From contig CAMYIO010000033.1 in assembly GCA_947258515.1 (NCBI GenBank), positions 609-64,608 on the forward strand: a stretch of DNA of 64,000 bases. Reading direction: 5' to 3'. A program made the translations under genes and the position numbers. Position 1 is the stretch's first letter. Every line of letters begins with the position of its first letter. Shown here piece after piece: positions 4,321 to 63,231 of this stretch. A model generated the notes under the pieces. It worked only from the letters and a program-made list of their open reading frames with translations, was not told where the DNA came from and made no database searches. Source of the DNA: an uncultured Ectothiorhodospiraceae bacterium (GTDB lineage Bacteria; Pseudomonadota; Gammaproteobacteria; UBA9214).

Positions 4321-4590
4321 CTTGCAGGTTTCCTCTGGCAGGTGGATTGTAGCTCGACCGGTGCCAAAGCGACGGCACACAACAAGCGCAGTCCGTTTAT
4401 ATTACCAGAATCCAGCTGCAAAACCTCTTCCTCTGCAATCGCCATGGAAGCACAAAATCTTGATGAAACCTGTTGGCTCGCATCTGGTCTGAATTCATGA
4501 CAACAGTTACAGTAAAGCGAGAACAGAAAAGATAACGAAACGGCTTTATGGGCAATGGATTCATACGCGCGCAAGCACTGCGAGGTGAGC

Positions 4591-4982
4591 ATGACAAATC
4601 TGGGGCATGTGGTATTTTATGTTCGTGACCTTGAACGCTCCGTGAAATTCTACACCAATGCGGTTGGACTAGGGCTCAGCGGTACCATCTTCAATGGCCG
4701 TGCGGCATTACTCAGTGGTGGCAGTACACACCACGAGTTACTGCTTATCCAGACAGGTGCCGCCGAGGGTCCCTTGCAGGGGAAGCGTATCGGCCTTTAC
4801 CACGTCGGCTGGAAAATCGGTGATTCACTCGAGGAATTAACCACACTATCAGTCAAAGTATTTATCTCAGAGACCCTGATGGCAATGAAATTGAATTGTA
4901 TGTCGACAATCCGGATTATGACTGGCGCAACGATGACAGCTGGATGGAGGCGCCTGTTAAACCATTGAAAACCAGCAACTGA
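4591..4982 (+). pseudogene. VOC/glyoxalase-family protein, apparently disrupted
   Basis: The N-terminus NLGHVVFYVRDLERSVKFY...HHELLL...HVGWKIGDSLEEL is a typical VOC fold. The conserved C-terminus YLSDPDGNEIELYVD...PVKPLKTSN lies in another frame ending at 4982, and about 17 aa between the two parts are missing. Confidence 0.5.
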
Positions 4983-5338: not shown

Positions 5339-6102
5339 ATGAACGAGAAAACAGAAACCCGCAACATGGCACTGTTCTGCGACTTCGAGAACGTCGCGCT
5401 GGGCGTGCGCGATGCCAATTACTCGGCCTTCAACATACAGAAGGTACTGGAACGCCTGCTGCTCAAGGGCAGTATCGTCGTCAAGAAGGCCTACTGCGAC
5501 TGGGACCGCTACAAGGAATTCAAGAAAACCATGCAAACTCTGCCGACATTCGCATGGTCGTTGACGCGCTGGACCTCTGTTATACCAAGTCGCATGTCGA
5601 CACCTTCGTGATCATCAGCGGCGACTCGGATTTTTCGCCCCTGGTCAGCAAACTGCGCGAGAATGACAAGGTGGTCATCGGTGTTGGCGTGAAGAGCTCC
5701 ACATCTGACCTGCTGATTGCAAACTGCGACGATTTTATCTTCTACGACGACCTGGTACGCGAGTCGGAGAAGCCGCGCCGCGCCCGGCGCAAGCCCGTGG
5801 CCAAAAAGGCAGGCAAGAAAGACAATACAAAGATCGAGGATGACAAGCAGCAGGAAGCACTGGACCTGGTCGTTGAAACGGTAGAGGCGTTGCTCAAGGA
5901 GCGCGGAGAACAGGAAAAGGTCTGGGGCTCGATGGTCAAGCAGACCCTGAAACGACGCAAGCCGGGTTTCAACGAGACCTACCACGGTTTCCGCACTTTT
6001 GGACAACTGCTGGAAGAAGCGCAGGCGCGTAAAATGCTGACATTGCAGCTGGACGAGAAATCGGGCGGCTACATCATCAAGGAACTCAACCGCGACGACT
6101 AG
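5339..6102 (+). pseudogene. NYN-domain (LabA-like) RNA-binding protein with C-terminal OST-HTH/LOTUS domain, disrupted
   Basis: The N-terminus MALFCDFENVALGV...KKAYCDWDRYKEFKK is in the 5297 frame. The rest, NSADIRMVVDALDLCYTKSHVDTFVIISGDSDFSPLV...GFRTFGQLLEEA, is in the 5272 frame. About 20 aa of the NYN core are missing at the junction near 5530. Confidence 0.55.
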
Positions 6103-22407: not shown

Positions 22408-23521
22408 TCAGAACCATATTGAAACGAAAAGCTGCGCCACGTCGGCACCGAATTTGTACAGCGGTTCATCTCCCGCCGGTGCGCCGCTGTCGCGCAGATC
22501 GCGAAAATCATGGTAGTTGAACCAGATGTGATCATAGGACAGGTTAATACTGCCACGGTCTATCCAGCGCCAGCCATTCTGTACGAAATCATAACTCAAC
22601 GAAAACCCGAGCGTGTTGCTGTCAAAAGAGCTGAGTTCCTTGTCGCGCGCGAGAAAGTTCTGTGCATCCCTGCGCGGGAACAGGTCACTGTAAAAGTCGG
22701 CTGAATTCTGCGTGTAATAGCGGTAGTGAGCTTCAAATAACCAGCCACCGCTCAGCGGGTGTATGTAGGCAAGCTTGACGTTATGCGCCCGGATTCCCCA
22801 GGTGTCATCAAAGATCCGGTACTCTGCATAGGTTGATGCACGATAAGGTAAATAATAAAGTCCGCGCACGGCAACTGCGTTGCTGGTGCGTGTATTCGGG
22901 TAGACCTCCGGCTGATAACTGTAACCCGGAGAACTCGCAGTATCGATGTAACGCACCGAACGGTAGGGATTATTCAAATATGCTGATCACCTGCGTGAGC
23001 CCGACTGTATAATTCTGCCGGTCCACATCTTCGGAGAAGGCAGGGTCGTTATTGTTGCCAACGACATCCCAGCCACGTGCATATCCCAGTGTCACGGTGG
23101 TCATGTTGCCAAACATGTCCATGCTGATACCAAAACTGGCGGTATTGGCCGAGTAATCACTCTCCTCACTGTTGGTATAGGAGACACTCATAATCGAATT
23201 GCCATGCAGGTAGTCTGCACCCAGCGAGTATTCAGTTCGCTCTTCCGTGTAGGGACTGGCCGTGGTGACGACATCAATGGATGCGCTGCTGATGGAATCC
23301 ACGTAGTAGTTACCGCTGAGCGCAAAATTCTGCCCGACGTTTTTCAGAACCAGCACCGATGGCCCGGTGATCTCGACCCCGCCGCCATCATAGGAGTGAT
23401 ACAGCGCATCGGCACGGTCATCCGGCAACACGCCGGCCACGGTCGGCAAGCCGCTGCACAGCAGGCACAGACCCGCGAGACAGGTTTTGCGGATACTAGT
23501 TACAGCCACAGCCCCCACCAT
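22408..23521 (-). pseudogene. DUF3570-like outer-membrane protein, split by a frameshift near 22970
   Basis: Two abutting 189-aa ORFs. The N-terminal half carries the signal peptide (LAGLCLLCSGLPTVAG). The C-terminal half ends ...FVSIWF, the terminal-Phe signature of outer-membrane barrels. Together they make ~378 aa, typical of DUF3570. It sits next to the DUF4266/TlpA partners. Confidence 0.5.
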
Positions 23522-23732
23522 TACCACCTTCAGCACCACGCGCCGCCTCGCGTGCCTGGTAGACGTGAATCATGTAGGAGGATGACACCGGGTTGCGTTC
23601 GAAACGCATGATTTCATCCGCAAGGTATTCACGCTCATAGGGCTTTACCCAGGGTTCGACCATACTGCAAGCCGGCAGGTACAACACACCCAGAACGAGA
23701 ATAACTGCTTTGCGGATAGTCACTGCCGTCAT
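23496..23732 (-). CDS. DUF4266-like small lipoprotein
   Basis: 78 aa, lipobox LPAC, C-terminal Gly-rich ...GGNGGGCGCN tail. Conserved neighbour of DUF3570 and TlpA genes. Confidence 0.55.
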   Translation of the reverse strand: MTAVTIRKAVILVLGVLYLPACSMVEPWVKPYEREYLADEIMRFERNPVSSSYMIHVYQAREAARGAEGGNGGGCGCN

Positions 23733-25665: not shown

Positions 25666-25675
25666 ACAGTCGCTA

Positions 25676-29704: not shown

Positions 29705-29707
29705 CCA

Positions 29708-32200
29708 ATGAACTACATCATAAATTCCATCATGCATCTCGTCCTGCATCGATACGGGGCAGTGTTGCTTGCCAGCGCCATGCTTTCCGCCTGTGGCGGT
29801 GAAAGCACGACTGAAAATCCGCAGACATTTACCACCATGACGTCCAGTTATTCCGGCCCGGCAGCAACGACGGCCGATGTACAGGCATTCAGGCTGAATG
29901 TCTGGGAGAACCTCAATAGACAGAATCGTTGTGGTGCCTGCCACGGTAGCGGCGGTCAGTCACCCACATTCGTACGCATGGATGACGTCAACCTCGCCTA
30001 TGCCGAGGCGAACAGCATCGTTGACCTCGCCAACCCGGCCAGTTCACGCATGGTAACCAAGGTAGCAGGCGGTCATAACTGCTGGCTGGACAGTGACAGT
30101 GCCTGTGGTGATGTCATCACGGCCTATATCACCGCCTGGGCCGGTGGGGTCGCCGGTGGCGGAAATATTATTGAACTCGTTGCACCCCCGCTGCGAGACC
30201 CGGGTGACAGCAAAAGTTTTCCCGACGACTCGGGCCTGTTCGCCACTACCGTGCATCCCTTGCTAACGGCTCATTGTGCCAGCTGCCATGTGGATTCGGC
30301 CGCCAATGCACAGTCTCCCTTCTTTGCGGACAGTGACGCGGACACAGCCTACGAGGCCGCCAAACCCAGGATTGACCTGGATAATCCCGCGAACTCACGT
30401 TTCGTGCTGCGGCTGCGTGAAGAATTTCATAATTGCTGGACATCTAACTGCCTGAATGACGCTGACACCATGGAAGCAGCCATCGCCGCCTTCGCTGCAC
30501 AAATCCCGGTGACGCAAATCGATTCACAGCTTGTCACCAGCAAGGCCCTGACATTACCCGACGGTATCGTTGCCAGTGGTGGTAGCCGCCATGAACAGAA
30601 TGTCATCGCGCTGTACCAGTTTAAAACCGGGCAGGGAAACACCGCGTTCGACACCAGTGGCGTCGAACCGGGCATGCACCTGACACTGAGCGGCAACACC
30701 GGCTGGGTGGGTGGCTGGGGACTCGATATCACCAATGGCAGGGCGCAGGCCTCGACGACAACCAGCCGCAAGCTGCATGAACTGATTACCGCCACCGGTG
30801 AATACACCATTGAAGCCTGGGTGGTAGCAGCCAACGTCACCCAGGAAGGTCCGGCACGCATTATCAGTTACTCAGCCGGAACCACTGTGCGTAATTTCAC
30901 CCTCGGGCAAACGCAGTACAACTACAATTTCCTGCAGCGCAACACCAACACGGACCCCAATGGTGATCCCGCACTGTCTACTGCTGATGCCGATGAAGAC
31001 CTGCAGGCGACGCAACAGCATGTCGTGGCAACCTATGACCCGGTAAGGGGCCGCCGTATTTACGTGAATGGCATCTTTACCGGTGACAGTGACCCGGTTG
31101 CCGGCGGCAGCCTGATTGACTGGGATGACAGTTTTGCCTTCCTGCTGGGTAACGAGGTCTCCGGTGACCGCCAGTGGCAGGGCCGGTTGCGGCTGGTAGC
31201 CATCCATAACCGTGTCCTCACCAATGCACAAATCATGCAGAACTTTGAAGCAGGTGTTGGTGAGAAATTCTTTTTACTGTTTAACGTCAGTGATCATAGC
31301 GGCATTGCGGACTCCTATGTCATGTTACAGGTCAGCCAGTTCGACAACTACAGCTATCTGTTCAATGACCCGTTATTCATCATCCTCGATGCCGATGCCA
31401 CGCCAGACAATATCCCGGTGGCGGGCATGCGCATCGGAATCAACGGCAAGGAGGCGAGCGTCGGTCAGGCCTATCAGCATCTGGATACCACTCTCAGCAG
31501 TGCACAGTATCAACCCGGCATGGGCCAGAAACTGTCCGTACTGGGGACCATTATTGCACTGGAAAAAGGTCCTGAATCAGACGAATTCTTTCTAACCTTC
31601 GAGGTGTTTGGAAACAGTACCCATGTTGTACTTGAGCCACAGCCACTGCAGCCCGGCACACCGCCCGATCTGCCGGAAGCCGCAGATGTCGGACTGCGTA
31701 ATTTTGACGAGATCAATGCCACTATGGCCACCATTACCCGCGTCAGTCCTGAACAGGAAGATGTAGACGATGTATTCGAAACCGTCAGGCAACAGCTGCC
31801 CACCGTTGAAAATATCGAGGGGTTTCTCTCGGCACACCAGATGGCAGTCTCGCAAATGGCCATCGAATACTGCAACGCGCTGGTAGATAACAACGGCAAC
31901 GTGCTGCGCACGGACTATTTTCCGCAGTTTGATTTCAACGAGACGGCAGACAATGCCTTTAATACAGCCGCCCAACGTGACAAGGTCATCCTGCCACTGC
32001 TCAACAGGGTAATGAATACCGGGTTAACAACACAGCCCGACCCCGCACAGGTCATCAGCGAACTTGACGACCTGATACTCATCCTGACTGCCTGCGCCAA
32101 TGGTCCTTCGCCGGGTTGCGCGACAGTGACACGTACGCGGGAAGTCGTGAAGGCGACCTGTGCCGCCATGCTTGGCAGTGCCGCCATGCTGATTCAATAG
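29708..32200 (+). CDS. lipoprotein with two repeated CXXCH-containing domains and a LamG/concanavalin-like domain
   Basis: Lipobox LSAC. A ~100-aa module occurs twice (CGACHG...SPTF...NPASSRMV...HNCW and CASCHV...SPFF...NPANSRFV...HNCW), followed by a LamG-like region. Confidence 0.6.
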   Translation: MNYIINSIMHLVLHRYGAVLLASAMLSACGGESTTENPQTFTTMTSSYSGPAATTADVQAFRLNVWENLNRQNRCGACHGSGGQSPTFVRMDDVNLAYAEANSIVDLANPASSRMVTKVAGGHNCWLDSDSACGDVITAYITAWAGGVAGGGNIIELVAPPLRDPGDSKSFPDDSGLFATTVHPLLTAHCASCHVDSAANAQSPFFADSDADTAYEAAKPRIDLDNPANSRFVLRLREEFHNCWTSNCLNDADTMEAAIAAFAAQIPVTQIDSQLVTSKALTLPDGIVASGGSRHEQNVIALYQFKTGQGNTAFDTSGVEPGMHLTLSGNTGWVGGWGLDITNGRAQASTTTSRKLHELITATGEYTIEAWVVAANVTQEGPARIISYSAGTTVRNFTLGQTQYNYNFLQRNTNTDPNGDPALSTADADEDLQATQQHVVATYDPVRGRRIYVNGIFTGDSDPVAGGSLIDWDDSFAFLLGNEVSGDRQWQGRLRLVAIHNRVLTNAQIMQNFEAGVGEKFFLLFNVSDHSGIADSYVMLQVSQFDNYSYLFNDPLFIILDADATPDNIPVAGMRIGINGKEASVGQAYQHLDTTLSSAQYQPGMGQKLSVLGTIIALEKGPESDEFFLTFEVFGNSTHVVLEPQPLQPGTPPDLPEAADVGLRNFDEINATMATITRVSPEQEDVDDVFETVRQQLPTVENIEGFLSAHQMAVSQMAIEYCNALVDNNGNVLRTDYFPQFDFNETADNAFNTAAQRDKVILPLLNRVMNTGLTTQPDPAQVISELDDLILILTACANGPSPGCATVTRTREVVKATCAAMLGSAAMLIQ

Positions 32201-34869: not shown

Positions 34870-34939
34870 ATGTAGGAGCGCCGTCCCCGGCGCGATTGTT
34901 TTTTCATGATTCGAATCGCGGCGAGGACGCCGCTCCTAC
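34870..34939. repeat. REP-like palindromic element (type A, copy 2)
   Basis: tgtaggagcgccgtccccggcgcgattg ... aatcgcggcgaggacgccgctcctaca, the same element as at 22303. Confidence 0.6.
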
Positions 34940-35083: not shown

Positions 35084-35638
35084 ATGTCCCTGAAATGCCA
35101 TTTTCCTGTTCCGTTCCGTTTCTGGATAGTACTGCTGATATTCTGCACTACCACAGTCGCCGCAGAGCCGGCCGCACAAACAGCCGGCACGACGGCAAGT
35201 CTCGATGAAGAAATCCAGTCCCTGAAGCAAGACGTGCTGGCGCTCAACCGGGAACTGTTCATCCTTGAAGAAGAACTGCTGTACCCTGCAAACACCCAGG
35301 TCGCGGTGTTTCTGTCTCTCGACATCGGCGAGTTTTTCAGCCTTGACTCGGTACAACTGAAGATCGACGACAATGTGGTCAGCAACTATCTCTATACGCA
35401 ACGCGAGGTAGACGCCCTGCACCAGGGCGGTGTCCAGCGCCTCTACATGGGCAACCTTAAGGCCGGTGAACACGAGCTGGTTGCCATCTTCACGGGCCAG
35501 GGACCCAATGGCCGGGAATACCGTCGTGGCGCCAACCATATCATCACCAAGACACTCGGGGCCCGATTCATTGAACTGAAAATTGTCGATAACGACAGCA
35601 GCGAGCAGCCTGATTTCAGCATCAGGGAATGGGAATAA
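35084..35638 (+). CDS. periplasmic coiled-coil protein (first gene of the Exb/TPR cluster)
   Basis: Signal anchor, coiled-coil segment (EEIQSLKQDVLALNRELFILEEELL), then a beta-rich domain. GGAGG Shine-Dalgarno. Confidence 0.5.
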   Translation: MSLKCHFPVPFRFWIVLLIFCTTTVAAEPAAQTAGTTASLDEEIQSLKQDVLALNRELFILEEELLYPANTQVAVFLSLDIGEFFSLDSVQLKIDDNVVSNYLYTQREVDALHQGGVQRLYMGNLKAGEHELVAIFTGQGPNGREYRRGANHIITKTLGARFIELKIVDNDSSEQPDFSIREWE

Positions 35639-37515
35639 GCAGCATGCCGGTTTTCACCTGCTCACGGCTGTTGCTGCTGTGTCTGATCGTGATCACACCC
35701 TCACTTGACGCAGCGGATGCACCGCCGTCAGCGGTCAAGGACCTGCAATACGGCGAGGTTCTCTACCATTATTTCCAGCAGGACTACTTCAACAGCATCG
35801 TGCGCCTGCAGATTGCAAGGCAGCAGCAACGCCTGCCAAACCACGCGGCAGAGGCCGAACTGATGCTGGGTGGTCTCGACCTGTCCTATGGCCTCAGGGA
35901 CGAGGCCAACCACATTTTTCAACGCCTGCTCAGCGAGGAGACCAGCGATGTCAGCACGCGCAACCGTGCCTGGTTCTATCTTGCGAAGATCTCCTGGCAG
36001 CGCGGTGATATAAACGCGGCACTGCAGGCCATAGAACGTGTGCAGGGAACGATGACAGCCGCAACCCGCACAGCCACAGTCAACCTGCACAGCCTGCTGT
36101 TGCTGCAACAGGGTAACAACCAGGCGGCCATTAAGCTGTTGCAGGATGCACGCAGCGGCAAACGCTGGTCACCGTTCCTGAACTACAACCTCGGTATTGC
36201 CCTGATCCGGGAACAGCAACAGCAGCTGGGCGCGAAACAACTTGATCATATCGGTGATATCAATGGCCGCAACGAGGAGCTGCGCCTGCTGCGTGACAAG
36301 GCCAACCTGGCACTCGGCTACAGTTACCTGCAAGACGGCAATCCGGAAATGGCCCGCAAGACACTGGAGCGTGTACGTCTCGAAGGCCCGCTGTCGAACA
36401 GGGCATTGCTCGGCACCGGCTGGGCAGATACCGAAAGTGAAAACTATGCAGCGGCACTGGTGCCGTGGCTGGAGTTGAGCAGCCGTGACAGCACCGATCC
36501 GGCGGTACAGGAATCATTGCTGGCCATTCCCTATGCCATGACAAAGATGAACCTGCATGGACGCGCTGTAGAGCATTACAATGATGGCATCAGGCAGTTG
36601 ATCGAGGAACGACAGAAACTGGATCAATCCATCAGCGCCATCCACCAGGGCAGACTGCTGGATCTGCTGCAACAACACAACCTCGGCGCCGGCAACGGCT
36701 GGATGCAACAACTGCACCTCGACTCCGAGGCACCTGCGCTGCGCTACCAGCTCGCACTGATGTCATCGCACGACTTTCAGGAAGCTGTGAAGAATTACCG
36801 TGATCTCCTTGTATTACAAGTTAATCTATCCAGCTGGGAGAGCGCTATCGCCGCCTACGACGATATGCTCGCCGGCCGCCAGGCACGCTTTGAGACACAC
36901 CGCCCCGCAGCACAACAGGTACTGCAGGGCACGCGCCTGCAGCAACTGCAACAGCGCCGTGCCGCACTGGCCGAGAATCTTGCCCGCATCGGCATAATGG
37001 ACGATGCCGCCGCACTGGCGACCCCGGAAGAGGCCCGGCAGTGGCATCAACTGGCAACCATCGCTGAGCGACTGGCGCAGCTACCGGATAATCCCGATAC
37101 CGCGACATTGCACGACAAGCAGCAGCGCCTGCGTGGCCTGCTCATCTGGCAATTTCAGGAAGACTACAAACCACGCCTGTGGCAAGCCAGGAGGCAACTC
37201 GCCGAACTGGACACCCTGCTCAACGAGTCACAGCACGGCATCGACAGCCTGCAGCAGGCCAAAATCGATGCCCCGTCCGGTTTTGGCGATTTCAAACGGC
37301 GTATCGCCGCTAACAAGTCAACCATCGAGAAACTGTCAGCACAGACGGATACCACCCTGCTTGCACAAGGCAAGCAACTGGAGCATCTCGCCATCAATGA
37401 ACTGGAGCGTCAACAACAGCGTGTCGATGCCTATATCATCCAGGCACGTTTCGCGCTTGCGCAAACCTATGACAACGCCCTGCAGCAACCGGCAGTGGAG
37501 GGGAGCGTACAGTGA
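35629..37515 (+). CDS. periplasmic TPR + coiled-coil protein
   Basis: Signal peptide, N-terminal TPRs and a long C-terminal coiled-coil. Overlaps the next gene's start. Confidence 0.6.
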   Translation: MGISSMPVFTCSRLLLLCLIVITPSLDAADAPPSAVKDLQYGEVLYHYFQQDYFNSIVRLQIARQQQRLPNHAAEAELMLGGLDLSYGLRDEANHIFQRLLSEETSDVSTRNRAWFYLAKISWQRGDINAALQAIERVQGTMTAATRTATVNLHSLLLLQQGNNQAAIKLLQDARSGKRWSPFLNYNLGIALIREQQQQLGAKQLDHIGDINGRNEELRLLRDKANLALGYSYLQDGNPEMARKTLERVRLEGPLSNRALLGTGWADTESENYAAALVPWLELSSRDSTDPAVQESLLAIPYAMTKMNLHGRAVEHYNDGIRQLIEERQKLDQSISAIHQGRLLDLLQQHNLGAGNGWMQQLHLDSEAPALRYQLALMSSHDFQEAVKNYRDLLVLQVNLSSWESAIAAYDDMLAGRQARFETHRPAAQQVLQGTRLQQLQQRRAALAENLARIGIMDDAAALATPEEARQWHQLATIAERLAQLPDNPDTATLHDKQQRLRGLLIWQFQEDYKPRLWQARRQLAELDTLLNESQHGIDSLQQAKIDAPSGFGDFKRRIAANKSTIEKLSAQTDTTLLAQGKQLEHLAINELERQQQRVDAYIIQARFALAQTYDNALQQPAVEGSVQ

Positions 37516-38276
37516 AGCCCGTACTGCCTGTCATGGTGATGATGGCCGCCCTGTCAAGCGCCTGCTCAGTGCTGCACGGGGACAATGAGCCTACCATCGC
37601 GAGCCTCGGCAAACGCCCGGTAAAACTCGAGGACACACCGGTGTCAGCCAGTGAAGTGCAGGCGATCTCGGCCTACCGGTCCTTTCTTGACAGCGGTGAT
37701 GAATCGGATTCACGCCCGCACGCGATGCGCCGCATTGCCGACCTGAACCTGGAAAAAGAGGAACTGCCGCAAGCCGGGCAGACTACCCCGGACACCCCGT
37801 CGCTGCAGCCAATAGAGGCGCGCGAATCCATCGAACTGTACCAGAGCGTACTGTCACTCTATCCACAGCGCGCGGACAACGACTCGGTGCTCTATCAACT
37901 CGCACGCGCCTACGAGATGGATGGCCAGCCGCGACAATCGCTCGACACGCTGGCAACCCTCGTACAACACTACCCGCAGAGTCAATATGTGCTGGAAGCA
38001 CAGTTCAGGCGTGGCGAGATCCTGTTCGAGCAACGCGACTACGATAACGCAGAGCAGGCCTACCGCGCCGTGGTCAGCAGTGGCCCGGATAATTCGTTCT
38101 ACCGGCAATCGCTATACAAGAGCGGCTGGTGTTTTTTCAAGCTGTCAGAGCTGGATGAATCACTGGATGCCTTCATGGCACTCCTCGATCTGGAGCTGCA
38201 GGATACCGAAGCGGGTATTGCGCAACTCGATCAGCTGAGCCGTCCGCGGCGCGAACTGGCGCGAACTGGTGGATGA
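37512..38276 (+). CDS. TPR lipoprotein, 5' fragment of a split ~935-aa TPR gene (GltD/AgmU-like)
   Basis: Lipobox LSSACS. The frame ends 8 nt after the tandem 10-bp duplication gcgcgaactg/gcgcgaactg at 38249-38268. Removing one copy fuses it in frame to the next ORF. Confidence 0.6.
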   Translation: MKPVLPVMVMMAALSSACSVLHGDNEPTIASLGKRPVKLEDTPVSASEVQAISAYRSFLDSGDESDSRPHAMRRIADLNLEKEELPQAGQTTPDTPSLQPIEARESIELYQSVLSLYPQRADNDSVLYQLARAYEMDGQPRQSLDTLATLVQHYPQSQYVLEAQFRRGEILFEQRDYDNAEQAYRAVVSSGPDNSFYRQSLYKSGWCFFKLSELDESLDAFMALLDLELQDTEAGIAQLDQLSRPRRELARTGG

Positions 38277-40320
38277 CACCCTGCGCGTGGTCAGTCTGGG
38301 TTTCTCCTATGGGCAGGGTGCCGATGGCGTGTCCGAGTATTTCAAGCGACGCGGCACACGCCATTACGAATACATCATCTACGACAACCTTGGCCTGCTG
38401 TACCTGCAGAAGGAACGTTATAACGACGCCGCACAAACCTTCCAGGCGTTTGTGACACAAAACCCCATACATCGCCTGGCGCCCGGCTTCCAGATGCGCG
38501 TTATCGAGACCTATCAGCAAGGCAACTTCCCGACACTGGTACTGGAAAGCAAGGAGGCACTGGTCGATCAGTACAACCTGCAGAGTGAGTACTGGCAGCA
38601 TTACTCGCCAGAGGACAACCCGCAGGTACTGGATTACCTGAAGCTGGCCATGACTGACCTGTCCCGTCACTACCATGCACTGGCGCAGAAGGACAAGAAG
38701 CCGCAGGACTACCAGCAGGCCGCACACTGGTACCGGCGCTACCTGGGTTCATTCAGGGAGGATGCGGACGCGCCGCAGATGAATTTCCTGCTGGCCGAAC
38801 TGTTATTTGAATCCGGTGACTACCAGCAGGCCGCACTGGAATACGAAATTACCGCCTACGACTACGCCCCTCACGAGAACGCAGCAGCTGCCGGTTATGC
38901 GGCGGTACTCGCCTATGACAAACAGGAAGAGCGCCTGACAGGCAGCGCACAACAGGCGTGGCACCGGCAGTCTATCGAGTATGCCATCCGCTTTGCCAGC
39001 ACCTTCCCCCGGCATCCGCAGGCCATGGCTGTCCTTACCCGCAGCAGCGAACAGCTGCTGGCCAGCGGTGACCAGGAACGGGCAATACAGGTTGCGCAGT
39101 CAGTCATTGCCAGCGAGCAGGCCAGTGCCGTCCAGCAACGGGTTGCCTGGACGGTACAGGCACATGCCTACTTCGAGCAGGGAGATTTCCTGCAGGCTGA
39201 GGCCGCCTACCAGCAGGTACGCCAGCGCATGCCACGGGATAACAAGGAGTATGACAATATAAATGAGCGACTTGCCGCATCTATCTATAAACAGGGAGAA
39301 GCTGCGCAGGCGGCCGGTGAAACCGCCGACGCCGTCGCCCATTTCCGGCGGGTGCGTGAAGCCACACCCACGGCCTCCATCGTGGCCACCGCCGAATTCG
39401 ATGCGGCTGCCGGATTATTGTCACTACAACAATGGTCACAGGCTGCCGCCATGCTGGACCGTTTCCGCAACAGCTACCCGAATGATCCACGCCAGGACGA
39501 GGTAACGCGACGCCTCGCCACGGCTTACCTGGCCGAGGAGCAACCGCTGCAGGCCGCCCGCGAGTTCGAACGCATCGGCACCAGCCATGAGGACCCGACA
39601 TTGCGGCGTGAGGCACTCTGGCAAGCAGCGGAACTGTATACCGCGGCCGGCCAGCCGAACGAGTCCGTCGTGGCATACCAGCGCTACATCCAGCAATTTC
39701 CGCAACCCGTTGAACCAGCCGTCGAGGCACGGCAACGGATCGCTACACATTACGCGGCCAGCAACAACCTGGCGGAACAGCAGCGCTGGTTGAAGGACAT
39801 CATCAGGGCGGACCGGCAGGCGGGCAAGCAACGCAGTGACCGCACCCGCTATCTTGCCGCGCGCGCACAACTGACGCTTGCTGATAATGCCCATGAAAAC
39901 TACCGTCGCGCAAGACTGGTCCTGCCATTGAAGAAAAGCCTCGCTGTCAAGAAGCGCCTGATGCAATCGGCCATGCAGCAATACGAACAGGCCGCCGCTT
40001 ACCAGGTCGCCGAAGTCACCACGGCGGCCACCTTTCAAACGGCGCAGATCTATACGGAACTGGGCGTCGCCTTGCTGCAATCACAGCGACCGGCGAACCT
40101 GAGCGGCGAGCCCCTGGAGCAATACAACATTCTGCTGGAAGAACAGGCCTATCCGTTTGAAGAGCAGGCCATCACGCTGCATGAGACCAATGTGCAACGC
40201 ATCGAGTCCGGTCTGTACAACGCCTGGATCGAAAAAAGCCTGCAACAACTCGCGCAACTGGTGCCGGCCCGGTATGCCAAACTGGAAAGAGGGGCGCCCT
40301 ATGTCACCGCACTTAAATAA
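38269..40320 (+). CDS. TPR protein, 3' fragment of the same split gene
   Basis: Continues the TPR array (RRELVDDTLRVVSLGF... after removing one repeat copy). It has no start codon or Shine-Dalgarno of its own. Confidence 0.6.
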   Translation: MDDTLRVVSLGFSYGQGADGVSEYFKRRGTRHYEYIIYDNLGLLYLQKERYNDAAQTFQAFVTQNPIHRLAPGFQMRVIETYQQGNFPTLVLESKEALVDQYNLQSEYWQHYSPEDNPQVLDYLKLAMTDLSRHYHALAQKDKKPQDYQQAAHWYRRYLGSFREDADAPQMNFLLAELLFESGDYQQAALEYEITAYDYAPHENAAAAGYAAVLAYDKQEERLTGSAQQAWHRQSIEYAIRFASTFPRHPQAMAVLTRSSEQLLASGDQERAIQVAQSVIASEQASAVQQRVAWTVQAHAYFEQGDFLQAEAAYQQVRQRMPRDNKEYDNINERLAASIYKQGEAAQAAGETADAVAHFRRVREATPTASIVATAEFDAAAGLLSLQQWSQAAAMLDRFRNSYPNDPRQDEVTRRLATAYLAEEQPLQAAREFERIGTSHEDPTLRREALWQAAELYTAAGQPNESVVAYQRYIQQFPQPVEPAVEARQRIATHYAASNNLAEQQRWLKDIIRADRQAGKQRSDRTRYLAARAQLTLADNAHENYRRARLVLPLKKSLAVKKRLMQSAMQQYEQAAAYQVAEVTTAATFQTAQIYTELGVALLQSQRPANLSGEPLEQYNILLEEQAYPFEEQAITLHETNVQRIESGLYNAWIEKSLQQLAQLVPARYAKLERGAPYVTALK

Positions 40321-40455: not shown

Positions 40456-41064
40456 ATGAAGTTGAAACATGCGCTGGCACTGCTATTCATTGCCATCTGC
40501 CTGCTGCTAATAAATGGCTGCACGAACACCCGCAGCCATCAACCGGCGCTCATTGCAACGCCCACGGCAGACATTAAATCCGGGTATCAAAGCGCACTGC
40601 TAGCGATGCAGGCCGAACAATGGCAGCCAGCCCGCGAGCAACTCACTGAAATAACGACCCAACAACCCTCACTCTCCGGACCCTGGGTCAACCTGGGTAT
40701 CACCCGGACCATGCTCGGTGATCACGCCGGTGCCGAGAGCGCCTTCAAGAAAGCTATCGATACCAACAGCCGGAATATCGAGGCCTACAACCAGCTCGGC
40801 ATGCTCTACCGGCGTCACAGCCGTCTCGATGAAGCGCAATTCATCTACGAGGAAGCGCTGCGACGCGACCCGGACAACAGCAACATCCATTGGAACCTTG
40901 GCATCCTCTATGACCGCTACCTGCCGAATCCGCGCCAGGCCTTGCAGCACTACCAGCGCTACCAGAAGCTCACCGCGTCCGACGATCCCCGCTTACTGGC
41001 ATGGATTGCCGAACTGGAGGCACGCAATCCCGGCGACAACGTGACTGCGAAGGTAAAACCATGA
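40456..41064 (+). CDS. TPR lipoprotein
   Basis: Lipobox LLINGCT, then 4-5 TPRs. Confidence 0.65.
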   Translation: MKLKHALALLFIAICLLLINGCTNTRSHQPALIATPTADIKSGYQSALLAMQAEQWQPAREQLTEITTQQPSLSGPWVNLGITRTMLGDHAGAESAFKKAIDTNSRNIEAYNQLGMLYRRHSRLDEAQFIYEEALRRDPDNSNIHWNLGILYDRYLPNPRQALQHYQRYQKLTASDDPRLLAWIAELEARNPGDNVTAKVKP

Positions 41065-41422: not shown

Positions 41423-41474
41423 CTGCAGGAGCGCCGTCCCCGGCGCGAATCGCGGCGAGACGCCGCTCCTGCAG
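41423..41474. repeat. REP-like palindromic element (type A, copy 3, no spacer)
   Basis: ctgcaggagcgccgtccccggcgcgaatcgcggcgagacgccgctcctgcag. Confidence 0.55.
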
Positions 41475-41572: not shown

Positions 41573-42198
41573 ATGGACGCTTACACCACCATTGTCGGAT
41601 TCTTCCAGTCCGGCGGCTTATTCATGTACCCGATAGTGCTGATGAGCGCTACATCTATCTCAGCATGGCCAGGACCAGCAATCACCGCATCTGGAAAAAA
41701 CTCCAGCCACTGTTGCAAAAGGGCGATTATCTGCAGGTTGCCATGGTCACCGAGAAGTCCCGTTCCGCCATCAGCCACATCTTCAGTTACGGTCTCAACC
41801 GCGCACGCACCTCGCGCCGCCGCGATGATGTCGAGATCGCCATGGAGGAGGGCCTGATGGAGACCGTACCCAACCTTGAAAAACGCACCCCCTACCTGGC
41901 CACCTTTGCCAATATCGCGACCCTGCTGGGGTTGCTGGGGACCATTATCGGCCTGATCCAGGCGTTTACCGCCGTTGCCGCCGCAAACCCTGCCGAGAAG
42001 GCCGACATGCTGTCCGCAAGTATCTCGGTCGCCATGAACACCACGGCCTTCGGCCTGATGGTCGCCATCCCGTTGCTGCTGATATACGCCGTGCTGCAGA
42101 CCAAGACCACGCAACTGGTCGACAGTCTCGAAATGGCCTCGGTGAAGTTCCTGAACCTGTTAACTGAACGGCCGCTCGGCGAGGCCAAGGCCGGATGA
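41573..42198 (+). pseudogene. exbB: MotA/TolQ/ExbB-family proton channel, frameshifted near 41665
   Basis: N-terminus MDAYTTIVGFFQSGGLFMYPIVLMSATSI in one frame. The remainder, ...RIWKKLQPLLQKGD...GLLGTIIGLIQAF...MVAIPLLLIYAVLQ, is in the 41665 frame. AGGAG Shine-Dalgarno before 41573. Confidence 0.6.
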
Positions 42199-42719
42199 GA
42201 CGCCGCCTGCGTCGCCGCGCCGGGCAGCACGAACCGGCCGACATCAATATCACTGCCTTCATGAACCTGATGGTGATCCTGGTGCCGTTCCTGCTCATCA
42301 CGGCGGTGTTCTCGCGCATCACTATACTGGAACTGAATCTGCCGGCCGCGAGCGCCGGCCAGGCCGACAGCGAGCACGCCTTCCAGCTGGAGATCATCGT
42401 GCGTGCTGACATGATCGAGGTAGGCGACCGCAACGGCGGCCTGATCAGGCGCATCCCCGCAAACGAGGCAGGGCAAGACTACCGGCAATTATCGGAGCTG
42501 TTACAACAGGTGAAGGCTCGCTTCCCCGAGAAGCTCGACGCCATGCTGTTGCTGGAGGCCGACATTTCCTACGACACCGTGGTACAGGCCATGGACAGCA
42601 TCCGCGTGGCGCCGGTTGTGCAGGCCGGCACGTTACAGCTGGCCGAACTGTTTCCGGAAATCGCCATTGGCGATGCACCTGCTGACAACAGCAAAGTCGC
42701 CAGCAACAAGGGTCCGTAA
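42195..42719 (+). CDS. exbD: ExbD/TolR-family biopolymer transport protein
   Basis: ADINITAFMNLMVILVPFLL transmembrane helix plus periplasmic domain. ATGA overlap with exbB. Confidence 0.8.
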   Translation: MRRRLRRRAGQHEPADINITAFMNLMVILVPFLLITAVFSRITILELNLPAASAGQADSEHAFQLEIIVRADMIEVGDRNGGLIRRIPANEAGQDYRQLSELLQQVKARFPEKLDAMLLLEADISYDTVVQAMDSIRVAPVVQAGTLQLAELFPEIAIGDAPADNSKVASNKGP

Positions 42720-42721
42720 TC

Positions 42722-43228
42722 ATGATCCATTCGCGTCGTGCAGATCGTATGAATCGTCACCACAAACGGGCCGGCCGCAACACCGGCATCAACCTGGTGT
42801 CGCTGATGGACATTTTCACCATCCTGGTGTTCTTCCTGCTGGTGAACTCATCCGACGGTGAGGTACTGCCAACACAAAAGTCCGTGAAACTGCCCGAGTC
42901 GGTCGCCGAAGAACAGCCTCGCATGGCGCTGGTCGTCATGATCAATGAAACTGATATCATGATTCATGGCAAGGTCATCACCAGCACAGAAGCTGTGCTG
43001 AACGCAGATGCTGGCGCCACAGACCTGCTGAGAACAGCCCTGCAGGCTGAACTCGGGAAATCCGCGCAGCAGGATAAAAACGGCAAGCCCGTCAAACACG
43101 AGGCCACCATTATGGGTGACCGCGATATCCCCTACAGGATTCTGAAACAGGTGATGGCGAGCTGCACCGAAGCGGGGTTTGCGCGCATTTCACTGGCGGT
43201 ATTGCAAAAGCCACTGCAGGAGAGCTAA
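42722..43228 (+). CDS. exbD: ExbD/TolR-family biopolymer transport protein (second copy)
   Basis: GINLVSLMDIFTILVFFLLV transmembrane helix plus periplasmic domain. Confidence 0.8.
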   Translation: MIHSRRADRMNRHHKRAGRNTGINLVSLMDIFTILVFFLLVNSSDGEVLPTQKSVKLPESVAEEQPRMALVVMINETDIMIHGKVITSTEAVLNADAGATDLLRTALQAELGKSAQQDKNGKPVKHEATIMGDRDIPYRILKQVMASCTEAGFARISLAVLQKPLQES

Positions 43229-43231
43229 GCC

Positions 43232-44242
43232 ATGACGAGCTACAGTCACGCGCTCACCATGCCATGGACCTATAGCGCCGAAAGCGATGACCGCTATCAG
43301 CGTATCCTGCGTATCAATCTGGTGTTGTGCCTGTTGTTCGGCATTGCCATGCCGTTTCTGCCGCTGTCAGAGAGGGACGAGCCGATAATTGAAGAACCAC
43401 CGCGCCTTGCGACCCTGATCCTTGAAGTAAAACCGGTTCCGCCACCACCCAAACCGAAACCGGTCCCGAAACCACTGCCGAAAAAGGTCACCCAGCCGGA
43501 ACCAAAGCCCGTACCGAAGAAGGCCGTGGCGCCGAAAAAGACCGTGACGCCTGCAAAGCCGGTACCGAAGGTTGCCAAGGCAGCCCCGGTAAAACCCGTG
43601 CAGGCGAAGCCGGTACCGGTAAAGCCCAGGGTTACGGCACGGCAAAAGGCCGAGAAGTCCGGCCTGCTGGCGCTAACAGACAGCCTTGCTGACATGCGCC
43701 AGGGCACCAGTAGCAGTAACCTGCGTAAAACAAACCAACTGTCACAGAACGGCGGGCAGGCCCGCACCACCGAGCGTGCGCTACTGACCAGCGGCACCAC
43801 CCGTTCCAGCGGCGGCATCCAGACCGCCAGCCTGAGCCGCAATACCGGCGGCGGTGAACTGGCAACACGTTCCACCACACAGGTACAGAGTCCGGGAGGC
43901 ACTACCGCCAGCGGTGGTACAGTGGGCAACAGTGACAGGGGAACACGCAGCGCCGGGCGCAGCATCGAAGAGATCCAGATGGTTTTCGACCGCAACAAGG
44001 GGGCCATCTACAGTGTCTACAACCGTGCCCTCAGGAAGGACCCGACCCTGCAGGGTAAAGTCGTTCTGCAACTCACCATCGCCCCGTCCGGCAAGGTGAC
44101 CCGCTGTGAACTGGTCTCCAGTGAACTGCACGATGCCACCCTCGGCCAAAAGATTACGCAACGCGTCAAGCTCTTCAATTTCGAATCCAAAGACGTCAGC
44201 GAAATCACCATCACCTATCCCATCGATTTCCTGCCCGCCTGA
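43232..44242 (+). CDS. TonB-family energy transducer (Pro/Lys-rich spacer + TonB C-terminal domain)
   Basis: Transmembrane helix, (PxP/KP)n spacer PVPPPPKPKPVPKPLPKK..., and a C-terminal TonB-type domain (VVLQLTIAPSGKV...ITITYPIDF). Confidence 0.75.
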   Translation: MTSYSHALTMPWTYSAESDDRYQRILRINLVLCLLFGIAMPFLPLSERDEPIIEEPPRLATLILEVKPVPPPPKPKPVPKPLPKKVTQPEPKPVPKKAVAPKKTVTPAKPVPKVAKAAPVKPVQAKPVPVKPRVTARQKAEKSGLLALTDSLADMRQGTSSSNLRKTNQLSQNGGQARTTERALLTSGTTRSSGGIQTASLSRNTGGGELATRSTTQVQSPGGTTASGGTVGNSDRGTRSAGRSIEEIQMVFDRNKGAIYSVYNRALRKDPTLQGKVVLQLTIAPSGKVTRCELVSSELHDATLGQKITQRVKLFNFESKDVSEITITYPIDFLPA

Positions 44243-44864: not shown

Positions 44865-45305
44865 ATGAATAATGAAAACAACAGTATTGTCTCGCAACTA
44901 CGGCGCAATGCGGTCGCGTTAATCAGTCTCGTGATCGCCGTCAGCAGCCTGAGTTACAATACCTGGCGTAATGAAAAAACAGAAGACAATCGTAACCAGC
45001 GTTTTGCTGCATTTGAAATTCTCCTGAAGCTGGGCGAGTTGCAGCAGGTTGTCTTCCATCATCACTACGACAAGGACAAGGCAGACAAAGGAAACCCCCG
45101 TACCGGCTGGAGCTACGTCCTGACAGTACGTGATTTATCCCGGGTATTGCACCCGCCATTACCCGACACAGCTGATAAATTGCTCACTGTATGGAGCGAA
45201 AACTGGGAAGGGCTGGACAAAAACATCACGAATGTTGACTCGATTTTGGCTGGCATAGACGAGATGCGTGGCGAAACACTGCAATTACTCGACTCGCTTG
45301 AATGA
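44865..45305 (+). CDS. hypothetical membrane-anchored protein
   Basis: One transmembrane helix (AVALISLVIAVSSL). Low GC, no recognisable family. Confidence 0.4.
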   Translation: MNNENNSIVSQLRRNAVALISLVIAVSSLSYNTWRNEKTEDNRNQRFAAFEILLKLGELQQVVFHHHYDKDKADKGNPRTGWSYVLTVRDLSRVLHPPLPDTADKLLTVWSENWEGLDKNITNVDSILAGIDEMRGETLQLLDSLE

Positions 45306-45377
45306 TATTCATGCACGAATATTCCGTTACACTGCGCGCCGATGCATTATGGCAGCTGCATACAAGGAGAGAATAGA

Positions 45378-45791
45378 ATGTTGAAACGCCCGTTTATAGC
45401 TGTCGTGGTAATTTTCATAGCCTGGTCGCTGCTCGATTTTGTGATCCATGGCCTGCTCTTGCAGGAGACATACGAAGCAACAGCCAGTCTGTGGCGTCCC
45501 ATGGAAGAGATGAACATGACGCTCATGTACATCGTCACGCTGGCATACACTGTCTGCTTCGTTGCGATTTATGATGTCTTCGTCAGTCAGAAATCTGTTT
45601 CAACCGGTATAAAATACGGCGCGCTGTTCGGTTTAGCGGCCGGCATATCAATGGGCTTCGGTTCCTACACGTTCATGCCAATACCCTGGTCTCTGGCATT
45701 AAGCTGGTTTACAGGAACACTGGTTGAATCAATCGTGGCAGGCGCACTGGCTGGTGCCATCATAAAACAGTCGGATAACCGACCCCTATGA
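45378..45791 (+). CDS. hypothetical integral membrane protein
   Basis: Three to four transmembrane helices. Start placed at the MLKRPF ATG. Confidence 0.45.
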   Translation: MLKRPFIAVVVIFIAWSLLDFVIHGLLLQETYEATASLWRPMEEMNMTLMYIVTLAYTVCFVAIYDVFVSQKSVSTGIKYGALFGLAAGISMGFGSYTFMPIPWSLALSWFTGTLVESIVAGALAGAIIKQSDNRPL

Positions 45792-46090: not shown

Positions 46091-46199
46091 TACCCTGCAG
46101 GACAACACACCCCGATAAAATTACGTGAGGTTTATCGTTGGGTATGGCCGTGTATCCTGGTAATTCCAGTCAAACTGTATTAGTGACAAAGGCTTCATT

Positions 46200-46742: not shown

Positions 46743-46782
46743 TACATTCGAATGCAAGCAGGATTGGGCTATTTAAAAGAAC

Positions 46783-47019: not shown

Positions 47020-47070
47020 TAGCGTCATTGATGGCATACTACGCAAACCCGATTCAGGGGACTGGTTAAC

Positions 47071-58350: not shown

Positions 58351-60287
58351 ATGACCGAGACTAACGCAACCACACATTTCCATTCAGAAACAGACGACGA
58401 CAATATCGTCTGGCTGCATTTTGACAAGGCGGATGCCGGCACCAATGTGCTTAATGTTGAAGTCCTTGAGCAACTCGATCAGCATCTGCAGCAGATCGCT
58501 GCCCAGGGTCCGCGGGGTCTTGTCATCCTCTCGGACAAGGCAAACGGATTTATCGCCGGGGCCGATATCACGGCCTTTACGCAGCTCAAGACCAGTGACC
58601 AGGCATTGGCTTTCCTGCGCAGCGGGCAGGACGTTTTCAACCGGCTTGAAGCACTGCCCTTCCCCACCGTTGCGTTGATCCACGGCTTTTGCCTGGGCGG
58701 TGGCACCGAACTGTCACTGGCCTGCCGCTATCGCGTCACGCGCGACGATCCGGGAACACGCATGGGCTTGCCGGAAGTGAAACTCGGCATTCATCCCGGC
58801 TGGGGTGGCAGGTTGTCCCCGAACGGCACCTGCGTGCGGCGGCGCGCAAACTGGTACTGGAATCACCGGCACCACATCAACCCGGGTGGCTTGACCGCCT
58901 ATCCAATAATGTTCTCGTCCGCCCGCTGCTTGCACGCGTGTTCGGCCAACAGGTCGCAAAACGAGCGCCCAGAAACCATTACCCGTCACCCTACGCGATG
59001 ATCGATATATGGCGCCAGCACGCCACGGACAAGCAGGGCATGCTCGATGCCGAAGCACAGTCTTTGGCGCAGCTGATTACCGGTGCGACTGCAAAAAACC
59101 TGGTGCGTGTCTTTTTCCTGCAGGAGCAACTCAAGTCGCTTGGCAAGGACAAAAGCTACCAGCCAAAGTATGTGCATGTCATCGGCGCCGGCACCATGGG
59201 TGGTGATATCGCTGCCTGGTGCGCCTTCCGTGGTTTTCATGTCTCCCTGCAGGACCAGACTCCGCAGCGCATTGCCCCGGCGATCAAGCGCGCCCACAGC
59301 CTGTTCAAGCGCAAACTGAAACGGCCTGTCAAGATCACCGAGGCCATGGACCGCCTGATGCCCGACCACAAGGGTATTGGTGTCGAGCGTGCCGATATTA
59401 TAATTGAGGCAATTTTTGAAGATGCGGACGTAAAGCGTTCTTTATACAAGACTATTGAACCCAGAATGAAACCGGATGCCGTGCTTGCGACCAATACCTC
59501 CAGCATCCCGCTGGAAGAACTGTGCACGGCCCTGTCCCGTCCCGAACGACTGGTCGGCCTGCACTTTTTCAACCCGGTCGCGATGATGCAACTGGTGGAA
59601 GTCGTCACAGGTGAGTCCACCTCGGCGGAGGTGGCCGCACACGCCATGACCTTCACCCGGCAGATTGACCGCTTGCCCCTGCCCGTCACCAGTACGCCCG
59701 GCTTCCTCGTTAATCGCATCCTCATGCCCTACCTGATGGAAGCCGTGCTGCTCGAAGCCGAAGGTATCCCTCCGGCCGTTATCGACAAGGCCGCCACGAC
59801 GTTCGGTATGCCCATGGGGCCGGTGCAACTGGCCGACACCGTGGGGCTGGACATCTGCCTGCATGTCGCCGAGATACTTGCCGAACACTTCACTGCTGAA
59901 ATCCCGGACAGCCTCAGGAAACGGGTTGCTGACGGCAACCTTGGACGCAAATCCGGGCGTGGATTTTATAACTACAAGAAGGGTAAACCGGTGAAAACAA
60001 GAACCGGGGCTGGCAACTGGAACATGGAAGAGATCAGCAACCGTCTGATAGACCGCCTGCTGAATGAGTCCGTCAGCTGTTTACGCGAGCACGTGGTGGA
60101 GAATAATGATCTGCTGGATGCCGGCATGATTTTCGGCACCGGCTTTGCACCCTTTCGCGGCGGCCCCATGCAGCACATTGATGCTGTCGGGGCTGAAACC
60201 GTGTACAAACAGTTACAGACTCTGAAGGCATTACGCGGCGAACGTTTTACCCCGGATGATGGTTGGAATATCCTGATGCAATCCTAG
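58351..60287 (+). pseudogene. fadJ: fatty-acid oxidation complex alpha subunit FadJ (enoyl-CoA hydratase + 3-hydroxyacyl-CoA dehydrogenase), internally disrupted
   Basis: The hydratase domain (HGFCLGGGTELSLACRYRV...LGIHPGWGG) is in the 58315 frame. The remainder (RHLRAAARKLVLE... VIGAGTMGGDIA ... dehydrogenase) is in the 58689 frame. About 16 aa (TxRLPRLxG...) are missing at ~58810-58840. Confidence 0.7.
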
Positions 60288-62118: not shown

Positions 62119-62517
62119 ATGAGCGACACGCCGGACAATGACGATCTTGCCATCCGGGTCATGGCCATGCCTGCTGATACCAATGCGGCCGGAGACATTT
62201 TCGGTGGCTGGTTAATGTCACAGATGGATATAGCCGGTAGTGTCTTCGCACGCCGGATCGCCCGTGGCCGGGTAGTGACCGTGGCAGTTGATTCCTTTCA
62301 GTTCAAGCAACCGGTATTTGTCGGTGATTTGATCAGCTGCTACGCATCCATCACACGCATTGGAAAAACATCGCTCACAGTACACGTCAAGGCTTTCGCC
62401 GAACGGCAAGGCAAGACACATGAAAATATCCAGGTGACCGAGGCTGACTTGACGTATGTTGCGGTGAATGATCAGCGCAGGCCACGGCAGATTTCGAAAG
62501 GCTGCATCAGCGTTTAA
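62119..62517 (+). CDS. yciA: acyl-CoA thioester hydrolase YciA (hotdog fold)
   Basis: LAMPADTNAAGDIFGGWLMSQMDIAGS...GRVVTV is collinear with E. coli YciA. Confidence 0.8.
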   Translation: MSDTPDNDDLAIRVMAMPADTNAAGDIFGGWLMSQMDIAGSVFARRIARGRVVTVAVDSFQFKQPVFVGDLISCYASITRIGKTSLTVHVKAFAERQGKTHENIQVTEADLTYVAVNDQRRPRQISKGCISV

Positions 62518-63231
62518 TTTATATCTGTAGGAGCGCCGTCCCCGGCGCGATTGAATTTTGATATGCCCCGAATCGCGCCGGGGACCACGGTGAGGCACCG
62601 GGGCCAGGTAGGGCGAATCCGTTTCAACCAGGTAGCGGTCTGACGGCATTCGCGTTGCGATATCCTGCAATTCCCGGGCACTCTTGAAGGTCACGATGCC
62701 GGAAAATGAAATATAAAAATTCATTTCCATAGCACGCTGTGCCATCTCCCAGTCACCTGTAAAGCAATGCATGACGCCACCGACTGCGCTGGCCTGCTCT
62801 TCTTCGAGGATATTCAGGGTGTCGTCCCTGGCATCGCGAGAGTGAATAATCAACGGCTTGCCGGACTCTTTTGCCGCCGCGATATGCCGGCGAAAACGCT
62901 CACGCTGCCAGTCCAGATCACCCTCGCTGCGAAAGTAATCCAGTCCGGTTTCGCCAATGGCGATAACTCCCGGGTGTTTGGCAAGGTCTACCAGTTCATC
63001 GATAGCTGGATCATGCCCCCCCTGTTCATTCGGGTGCAGACCGACCGACGCCGATACCTGATCGTGCTCCTCGGCAATCTTCAGCACCGCCGGATAATCC
63101 TCAAGGTTGATCGACACGCACAGAAAATGACCGATACCCTGCTCTGCTGCCGCAGCGAGTGCAGCGTCCATGCTGCCAGCAAAATGTGACAGGTCGAGTC
63201 TGTCCAGGTGACAATGGGAATCTACAAGCAT
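62218..63231 (-). CDS. tatD: TatD-family hydrolase (YcfH/TatD), 3' end disrupted by the REP element
   Basis: MLVDSHCHLD...GLHP...GETGLDY...HCFTG...ETDSPYLAPVPHRG covers ~216 aa of a normal ~260-aa TatD. The frame then reads through the REP element (PRRDSGHIKIQSRRGRRSY) and ~300 nt antisense to yciA, with no family similarity. Confidence 0.65.
   Translation of the reverse strand: MLVDSHCHLDRLDLSHFAGSMDAALAAAAEQGIGHFLCVSINLEDYPAVLKIAEEHDQVSASVGLHPNEQGGHDPAIDELVDLAKHPGVIAIGETGLDYFRSEGDLDWQRERFRRHIAAAKESGKPLIIHSRDARDDTLNILEEEQASAVGGVMHCFTGDWEMAQRAMEMNFYISFSGIVTFKSARELQDIATRMPSDRYLVETDSPYLAPVPHRGPRRDSGHIKIQSRRGRRSYRYKLNADAAFRNLPWPALIIHRNIRQVSLGHLDIFMCLALPFGESLDVYCERCFSNACDGCVAADQITDKYRLLELKGINCHGHYPATGDPACEDTTGYIHL
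62526..62585. repeat. REP-like palindromic element (type A, copy 4)
   Basis: tgtaggagcgccgtccccggcgcgattg-aattttgatatgcccc-gaatcgcgccggggac. It lies inside the 3' end of the tatD reading frame. Confidence 0.55.

Follow-up and report, generated by a model that had tools for sequence, protein, structure and literature searches.

A 10-bp tandem duplication in a conserved TPR lipoprotein gene and further gene-breaking indels in a 64-kb window of gammaproteobacterial DNA

The interrupted gene and its operon

The window (the whole stretch of 64,000 nucleotides that was analysed) carries on its forward strand an operon that opens with the gene of a 628-aa secreted TPR protein (35629..37515, (+)). 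The second gene, with which this study is mainly concerned, is the disrupted gene of a conserved 932-aa TPR lipoprotein with YbgF/CpoB-like and BamD-like TPR segments (37512..40320, (+)), recognized from homologues and profile matches. It is followed by genes for a 202-aa TPR lipoprotein with a weak GltE/PilW-like match (40456..41064, (+)) and for a 92-aa conserved protein to which no family was assigned and which is called as a gene in the related loci L006 and L007 (41061..41339, (+)). Further downstream lie an ExbB/TolQ/MotA-family gene (41573..42198, (+); PF01618 at 41665-42198), two intact ExbD/TolR-family genes (42195..42719 and 42722..43228, both (+) and both matching PF02472) and the gene of a 336-aa TonB-like transducer whose linker is rich in proline and lysine and whose C-terminal domain is of the AgmX/PglI type (43232..44242, (+)). 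The genes of the operon were assigned with Pfam and NCBIfam.

In this arrangement, one TolQ/ExbB/MotA-family gene adjoins two TolR/ExbD-family genes, and the TonB-motif transducer is of the GltG/GltJ type by way of its AgmX/PglI domain, which scores 72.8 bits against NF033768 (cut-off, 40). The same protein reaches 24.4 bits against TonB_C, just below the cut-off of 24.6, and stays below the cut-offs of the GltJ and GltG equivalog models. Among the three TPR proteins of the operon, the GltE model scores 47 bits, with a cut-off of 225, and none of them matches the GltD or GltC model at E<=0.001. Because these TPR proteins fall under the Glt equivalog cut-offs, we describe the operon as apparently Agl-Glt-core-like or Tol/Ton-like and do not call it an Agl-Glt member.

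Inside the 932-aa gene, the 10-mer GCGCGAACTG stands twice in direct tandem at 38249-38258 and 38259-38268 (+), in the local order ...CCGTCCGCG GCGCGAACTG GCGCGAACTG GTGGATGACACC... The first-pass annotation had described this as a perfect tandem duplication, and both direct reading and Tandem Repeats Finder (2.2 copies, 100% matches) confirm it; the period-10 identity run covers 38248-38269, that is, 22 nt or 2.2 copies. The extra copy amounts to a +1 frameshift that leaves two ORFs. The N-terminal ORF (37512..38276, (+), 254 aa) encodes a signal peptide with a lipobox, a linker and the first TPRs; its final seven residues (ARTGG plus stop context) are out of frame, and it ends in ...SRPRRELARTGG* at a stop 8 nt past the repeat, exactly as first read. 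The C-terminal ORF (38269..40320, (+), 683 aa) is in the native frame, has no signal peptide of its own and begins at a GTG that overlaps the stop of the 254-aa ORF by 8 nt (GTGGATGA). Within 20 nt 5' of GTG 38269 there is no GGAG, GAGG or AGGA, which agrees with the earlier remark that the 683-aa ORF has a GTG start and no Shine-Dalgarno-like motif; the native start, GTG 37512, has the Shine-Dalgarno sequence GGAGGGGAG upstream and a GTGA overlap with the preceding gene. When one copy of the 10-mer is removed in silico, the two ORFs join seamlessly, as had been predicted, into an uninterrupted ORF of 932 aa that reads ...SRPRRELVDDTLRVVSLGF...

By chance, 0.0975 perfect tandem duplications with a unit of at least 10 bp are expected per window of equal size and composition, and at least one such duplication was present in 9% of 400 Markov simulations. 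By itself, the repeat is merely mildly unusual, and it is the comparative data, as far as sequences can tell, that show a real event. Its form is nevertheless informative: the pre-duplication form GG-CGCGAACT-GG contains a direct repeat of 2 nt, spaced as slippage would require, and a perfect tandem copy flanked by GG..GG is, on the face of the sequence, a signature of polymerase slippage and not of random sequence. Rfam and tRNA scans of the window gave no matches, so an RNA element does not appear to be involved.

One way in which the gene could still yield a full-length product, in this case of 935 aa, is programmed +1 ribosomal frameshifting across the junction. The shift that would be needed is indeed +1, and the TGA lies 5 nt past the point at which the frames merge. 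However, neither a slippery motif of the prfB type (CUU UGA C) nor a Shine-Dalgarno-like stimulator is found in 38240-38276, and the insertion is missing in every relative, so that the recoding site is not conserved; we regard programmed frameshifting as extremely improbable.

The junction in homologues and related loci

The repaired 932-aa protein passes the YbgF model of NCBIfam with 114.8 bits (cut-off, 90.1), and a protein search with it returned more than 3000 homologues. The best 120 of these are almost all 911-941 aa in length (one has 881 aa), cover 93-100% of the query, show a top identity of 96% and read through the junction as ...SRPRRELVDDTLRVV... In P0001, P0002, P0003 and P0012, the junction reads ...QLSR(P/A/S)RRELVDDTLRVVSL..., and these four proteins have in common an N-terminal signal peptide that ends L-S-S-A-C or L-L-S-A-C; it is on account of this conserved signal peptide that the lipoprotein label given at first pass seems reasonable. 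Among the best 120 of the more than 3000 homologues, there is neither a split allele nor an orthologue encoded as two proteins, and a 683-aa fragment at >90% identity would score ~1400 bits, enough to appear among them. In tblastn, the 932-aa proteins of the relatives match the window at 37512-40317 in two frames, and the two fragments cover successive, non-overlapping parts of one continuous relative protein, as the fragments of a frameshift pseudogene do.

The same picture emerges at the DNA level. Seven related loci (L001-L007), taken from metagenome contigs and gammaproteobacterial metagenome-assembled genomes and including two that are 95-96% identical to the window, were compared at the homologous site, where each contains the 10-mer exactly once; the doubled 20-mer is absent from 13/13 related loci retrieved. 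Two metagenome scans for the junction with one, two or three copies gave 0 hits, the single-copy form of L007 included, and exact look-ups of the 254-aa and 628-aa products matched no recorded protein. Given the single 10-mer in all seven loci and the single-protein homologues, the duplication is derived and, as far as visible, specific to this sequence. The proposal that 37512-40320 constitutes one gene is upheld by both the homologues and the single-copy orthologous DNA, and its length needs a small correction, from ~935 aa to 932 aa. One of the seven loci, L005 (CAVOZZ010000007.1), belongs to a long-read assembly and differs from the window and from the other loci by dozens of 1-bp indels; these are probably homopolymer errors of that assembly and illustrate what frameshifts due to sequencing error look like, unlike those of the window.

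The homologues also bear on the idea that the two ORFs form a functional split gene, in which a 254-aa lipoprotein and a 683-aa protein would be made by termination-reinitiation at the overlapping GTG. The 8-nt overlap between GTG and stop has a geometry compatible with translational coupling, and the downstream frame is fully open. Against this stand the homologues, none of those listed being split here, and the predicted fate of the C-terminal part, which would be in the wrong compartment since it has no signal peptide; moreover, a Shine-Dalgarno sequence is lacking, and the break is young and one of many lesions. We therefore consider a functional split gene very unlikely.

Further broken genes and the spectrum of the lesions

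A second member of the operon is broken as well. The ExbB-like gene starts at 41573 and changes frame after MYPIVLM; alignment places a 28-bp deletion between 41643 and 41644, by which most of TM1 is lost and the frame is shifted. The deletion is absent from 6/6 related loci that cover the site, and in L006 the gene is intact and encodes 217 aa.

This deletion matters for the suggestion, made at first pass as an alternative to inactivation, that the lipoprotein gene is phase-varied, that is, switched reversibly ON and OFF by gain and precise loss of one 10-bp copy. Such a switch would suit a perfect tandem duplication within an ORF, the precise excision of which restores the gene, as well as a product that is an envelope lipoprotein, and duplication-based precedent exists in cap3A, cap8E and tts of S. 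pneumoniae (Waite et al. 2001 and 2003, cited in PMC4243769). The main argument against it is that the 28-bp deletion in the ExbB-like gene is irreversible, so that re-switching the TPR gene would not restore the system. In addition, the repeat has 2.2 copies only, no other duplication variants or copy-number polymorphism are seen in the relatives, the ON state with one copy is found in each of the seven related loci and of the 120 listed homologues, and six other, unrelated genes carry non-reversible lesions, a sign that the process extends beyond this locus. Phase variation is thus, in our estimate, highly improbable, while the other half of the original proposal, inactivation by the 10-bp duplication, is supported by the single-copy relatives and the continuous homologues, from which a loss of function would be expected.

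A reciprocal tblastn screen found seven genes broken in the window and none in the same regions of the loci of ten relatives. About 55 of the 64 kb were comparable with relatives, 13.8-20.3 kb and the island at 44.96-47.0 kb having no comparable relative, and the share of broken genes comes to about 12%, or roughly one in eight. As judged from these alignments, at least seven indels of 10-155 bp, the duplication among them, break genes in the window. Outside the operon, the genes concerned are as follows: (i) a glyoxalase-family gene (4555..4979, (+)) with a 55-bp deletion at ~4842, the product of which has 148 aa in L014; (ii) an NYN-domain gene (5339..6102, (+)) with a 52-bp deletion at 5536, encoding 271 aa in L014, L015 and L016, this deletion and the preceding one having been seen against loci found through an identical DsrC protein; (iii) a DUF3570 gene (22408..23539, (-)), present as two 189-aa ORFs that were flagged by Pfam coverage, in which alignment with L008 and L009 (95-96% identity) reveals a 47-bp deletion at ~22981 and the relatives have 392 aa; (iv) a FadB-like gene with ECH and 3HCDH domains (58351..60287, (+)), which has a 106-bp deletion at 58811 and encodes 686-688 aa in L010-L012; and (v) a tatD-family gene (62218..63231, (-)), which has lost its last 44 codons and stop to a deletion of ~150-155 bp at 62585. 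In the last case, the profile match stops at position 217 of 253, the 120 homologues listed have 256-261 aa, nearly all of them 260, and the deletion ends inside a REP-like palindrome, part of which is lost. No lesion-bearing protein is found among the homologues retrieved. With at least seven genes broken, the reading moves from a mechanism specific to one locus to a process, or an artefact, that spans the window.

Several candidates were set aside. The gaps at 24922-25676 and 21991-22408 show no window-specific coding indel relative to L008 and L009 and reflect small genes left uncalled, and a 28-bp insertion at 5206 is intergenic and common to L015. Selection for loss of the operon, which two lesions in 9 kb might suggest, is not needed, such a pair being unsurprising with seven lesions across the window; the probability that two hit the operon by chance is roughly P = 0.2 for 2 of 3 and higher for 2 of 7.

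Other features of the window were recorded in the course of these comparisons. The REP-like palindrome (GGAGCGCCGTCCCCGGCGCGA ... inverted partner) has 6 matches in the window against 0.01 expected, with intergenic copies at 22306-22370, 34875-34936, 41428-41470 and 62530-62590; in the copy beside tatD, which makes up one end of the deletion in that gene, the loop is flipped with respect to L012. At 20393-20782 (-), a small secreted protein with Gly/Tyr repeats of the GYPGYGYGG type and a (PAA)n tail is encoded by a gene with 9-, 24- and 33-bp tandem arrays (repeats at 20408-20647), and the window has one 9-bp unit more than L009, an in-frame variation in copy number. A segment of ~2 kb at 44960-47026, with small membrane or unassigned ORFs, is absent from L001; the 100-aa ORF at 45788-46090 has no Pfam match and no in-frame continuation and by eye resembles the N-terminal stub of an esterase. 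Large secreted proteins are encoded at 25676-32200 and 13727-16480. Among them are an 888-aa protein with a hydrazine-synthase-alpha-like middle domain, an 830-aa protein in which a Laminin_G_3 domain is accompanied by a weak match to cytochrome c, and a protein of 917 aa that weakly matches MtrC/MtrF-like multihaem proteins and TPRs. The gene of the 830-aa protein differs from both L008 and L009 by two single-base indels (+1/-1) at a distance of 7 nt (31222-31229), a compensated frameshift by which two residues are altered. DsrC is encoded at 6278-6571, and together with the large secreted proteins it points to a sediment-type gammaproteobacterium that oxidises sulfur.

Neutral evolution should produce more non-synonymous than synonymous changes. 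The window-specific substitutions in the TPR gene comprise 25 synonymous and 8 non-synonymous changes, and those in the operon 63 and 26, respectively, compared with 61 and 38 on the intact L006 branch. This synonymous excess reveals normal constraint for nearly all of the separate history of the lineage, from which it follows that the lesions are recent and that purifying selection held until shortly before now.

The indels themselves measure +10, -28, -47, -52, -55, -106 and about -155 bp. All are at least 10 bp long, no length is divisible by 3 (P about 0.06 for random sizes), and uncompensated 1-2-bp coding indels or nonsense codons do not occur among the window lesions. At the six deletion junctions, microhomology amounts to 2, 0, 0, 0, 1 and 1 nt, a mean of 0.67 against 0.68 for random breakpoints. 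This spectrum is atypical for natural gene decay, and a free-living bacterium would be heavily burdened if about 12% of its genes were broken while dN/dS had not risen.

Such features give weight to a technical origin, according to which the organism's own DNA contains neither the duplication nor the six deletions and the gene is intact in vivo. Chimeras formed during whole-genome amplification of a single cell, reassembly by aggressive polishing, a long-read consensus at low coverage or later editing of the sequence could each be the route. A technical origin would account for seven lesions in ~55 comparable kb where the loci of ten relatives have none, for the restriction to out-of-frame events of at least 10 bp, for junction microhomology exactly at the random expectation, and for the contrast between indels that look unselected and substitutions, like all else, that are under normal purifying selection; that no retrieved homologue carries any of these lesions points the same way. 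On the other hand, the lesions do not correspond to known types of error: the window has no 1-bp homopolymer errors of the kind seen in L005; a de Bruijn mis-join depends on a common k-mer, and no junction has more than 2 nt in common; and the sole insertion in a coding sequence doubles its unit perfectly in tandem, as biological slippage classically does. Bacterial mutation is also said, since the work of Mira, Ochman and Moran in 2001, to have a deletional bias, which the ratio of six deletions to one insertion would fit. We take a technical origin to be a serious possibility, although on balance a doubtful one.

Proposed course of events and known systems

The explanation that we favour, and that we hold to be just on the probable side, is that a recent, lineage-specific 10-bp duplication is a plain loss-of-function lesion and no regulatory device, that the gene is a pseudogene and that its loss belongs to a recent burst of unselected inactivation. 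The following steps would be involved: (i) a recent 10-bp insertion causes a +1 shift inside the conserved 932-aa TPR lipoprotein gene; (ii) translation from GTG 37512 then stops after 254 residues; (iii) any product of re-initiation at the overlapping GTG, having neither a Shine-Dalgarno sequence nor a signal peptide, would be cytoplasmic and unable to do its job in the envelope; and (iv) the gene of the proton channel (ExbB-like) is independently destroyed by the 28-bp deletion, so that the whole Tol/Ton-like machine is predicted to be non-functional. The seven indels would then represent a very recent burst of unselected gene inactivation in the lineage. That the lesions arose in the organism and not in the course of sequencing or processing is part of this explanation and, like the loss of function, is inferred.

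A broader version of the burst, which we think rather unlikely, would have the lesions mark a sediment-type, DsrC-carrying lineage of Gammaproteobacteria at the very start of massive gene inactivation, with about one-eighth of its genes broken. Microhomology-independent indels of 10-155 bp would in that case have accumulated before any rise in dN/dS and before point lesions, and they might stem from end-joining repair of double-strand breaks or from selection that ceased suddenly when the lifestyle changed. With its two lesions, the Tol/Ton-like TPR operon would then provide the first knock-outs found in nature for a widespread machine whose function is unknown.

For annotation, 37512-40320 is to be treated as one disrupted gene, and the window is to be flagged for its unusual density of frameshifting indels. 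If the lesions are true, the genome would illustrate gene loss at a very early stage, driven by indels and with an unusual mutational spectrum, and the operon of TPR, ExbB, two ExbD and TonB-like genes (Agl-Glt core-like) would be dispensable in the lineage. If they are an artefact, the window would serve as a warning that assembly or processing errors of medium size can mimic pseudogenes. Apart from the odd lesion spectrum, the importance of the locus lies mainly in annotation and quality control.

Among systems known to alter reading frames, the contingency loci of Haemophilus and Neisseria, with their tetra- and pentanucleotide tracts, contain many units of 1-7 bp and are polymorphic among close relatives. 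As in those loci, a change in repeat copy number here shifts the frame of a gene for an envelope protein; unlike them, the window has two copies of a 10-mer in place of a many-copy tract, and the relatives uniformly have one in place of a polymorphism. Closer in form are the spontaneous intragenic tandem duplications described by Waite et al. (2001, 2003) as the basis of phase variation in pneumococcal cap3A, cap8E and tts, as cited in PMC4243769. There, too, an intragenic tandem duplication inactivates a surface-related gene, and its precise excision would restore the gene; the present locus differs in that the operon has a second, irreversible lesion, other, unrelated genes are broken and alternative duplications are not seen.

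With respect to the operon, Luciano et al. (2011) described an Agl-Glt 'core complex' cluster in Gamma- and Deltaproteobacteria, which in Gammaproteobacteria comprises aglR, aglQ, aglS, gltD, gltE, gltG, gltC and one extra gene and is of unknown function there (PMC3169522). The operon in the window shares with this core, and with the Tol-Pal and TonB-ExbBD systems, a TolQ/ExbB-like channel, two TolR/ExbD-like proteins, a TonB-motif transducer whose C-terminal domain is of the AgmX/PglI type and several TPR proteins, lipoproteins among them, all encoded in a single cluster. It differs from Agl-Glt in that its TPR proteins are under the GltE cut-off and have no GltD or GltC match, the likeness resting on profile matches, and from the Tol-Pal and TonB systems in that the operon contains no Pal, TolB or TonB-dependent receptor.

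As an event, the interruption of the 932-aa gene is of a type already known, namely, a frameshift pseudogene that results from a short tandem duplication, and it is not specific to this locus. The classic case of slipped-strand mispairing is the gain and loss of CTGG at the lacI hotspot of E. coli, from which the present case differs in having a 10-bp unit that went from one copy to two, with no pre-existing multi-copy tract. Unlike slippage pseudogenes, moreover, the window also holds six deletions with chance microhomology that slippage does not explain. In the remaining respects, the gene resembles other frameshift pseudogenes made by short duplications: it contains a perfect copy within the ORF, flanked by GG..GG, that is absent in relatives, its product is truncated, and its native frame is open downstream.
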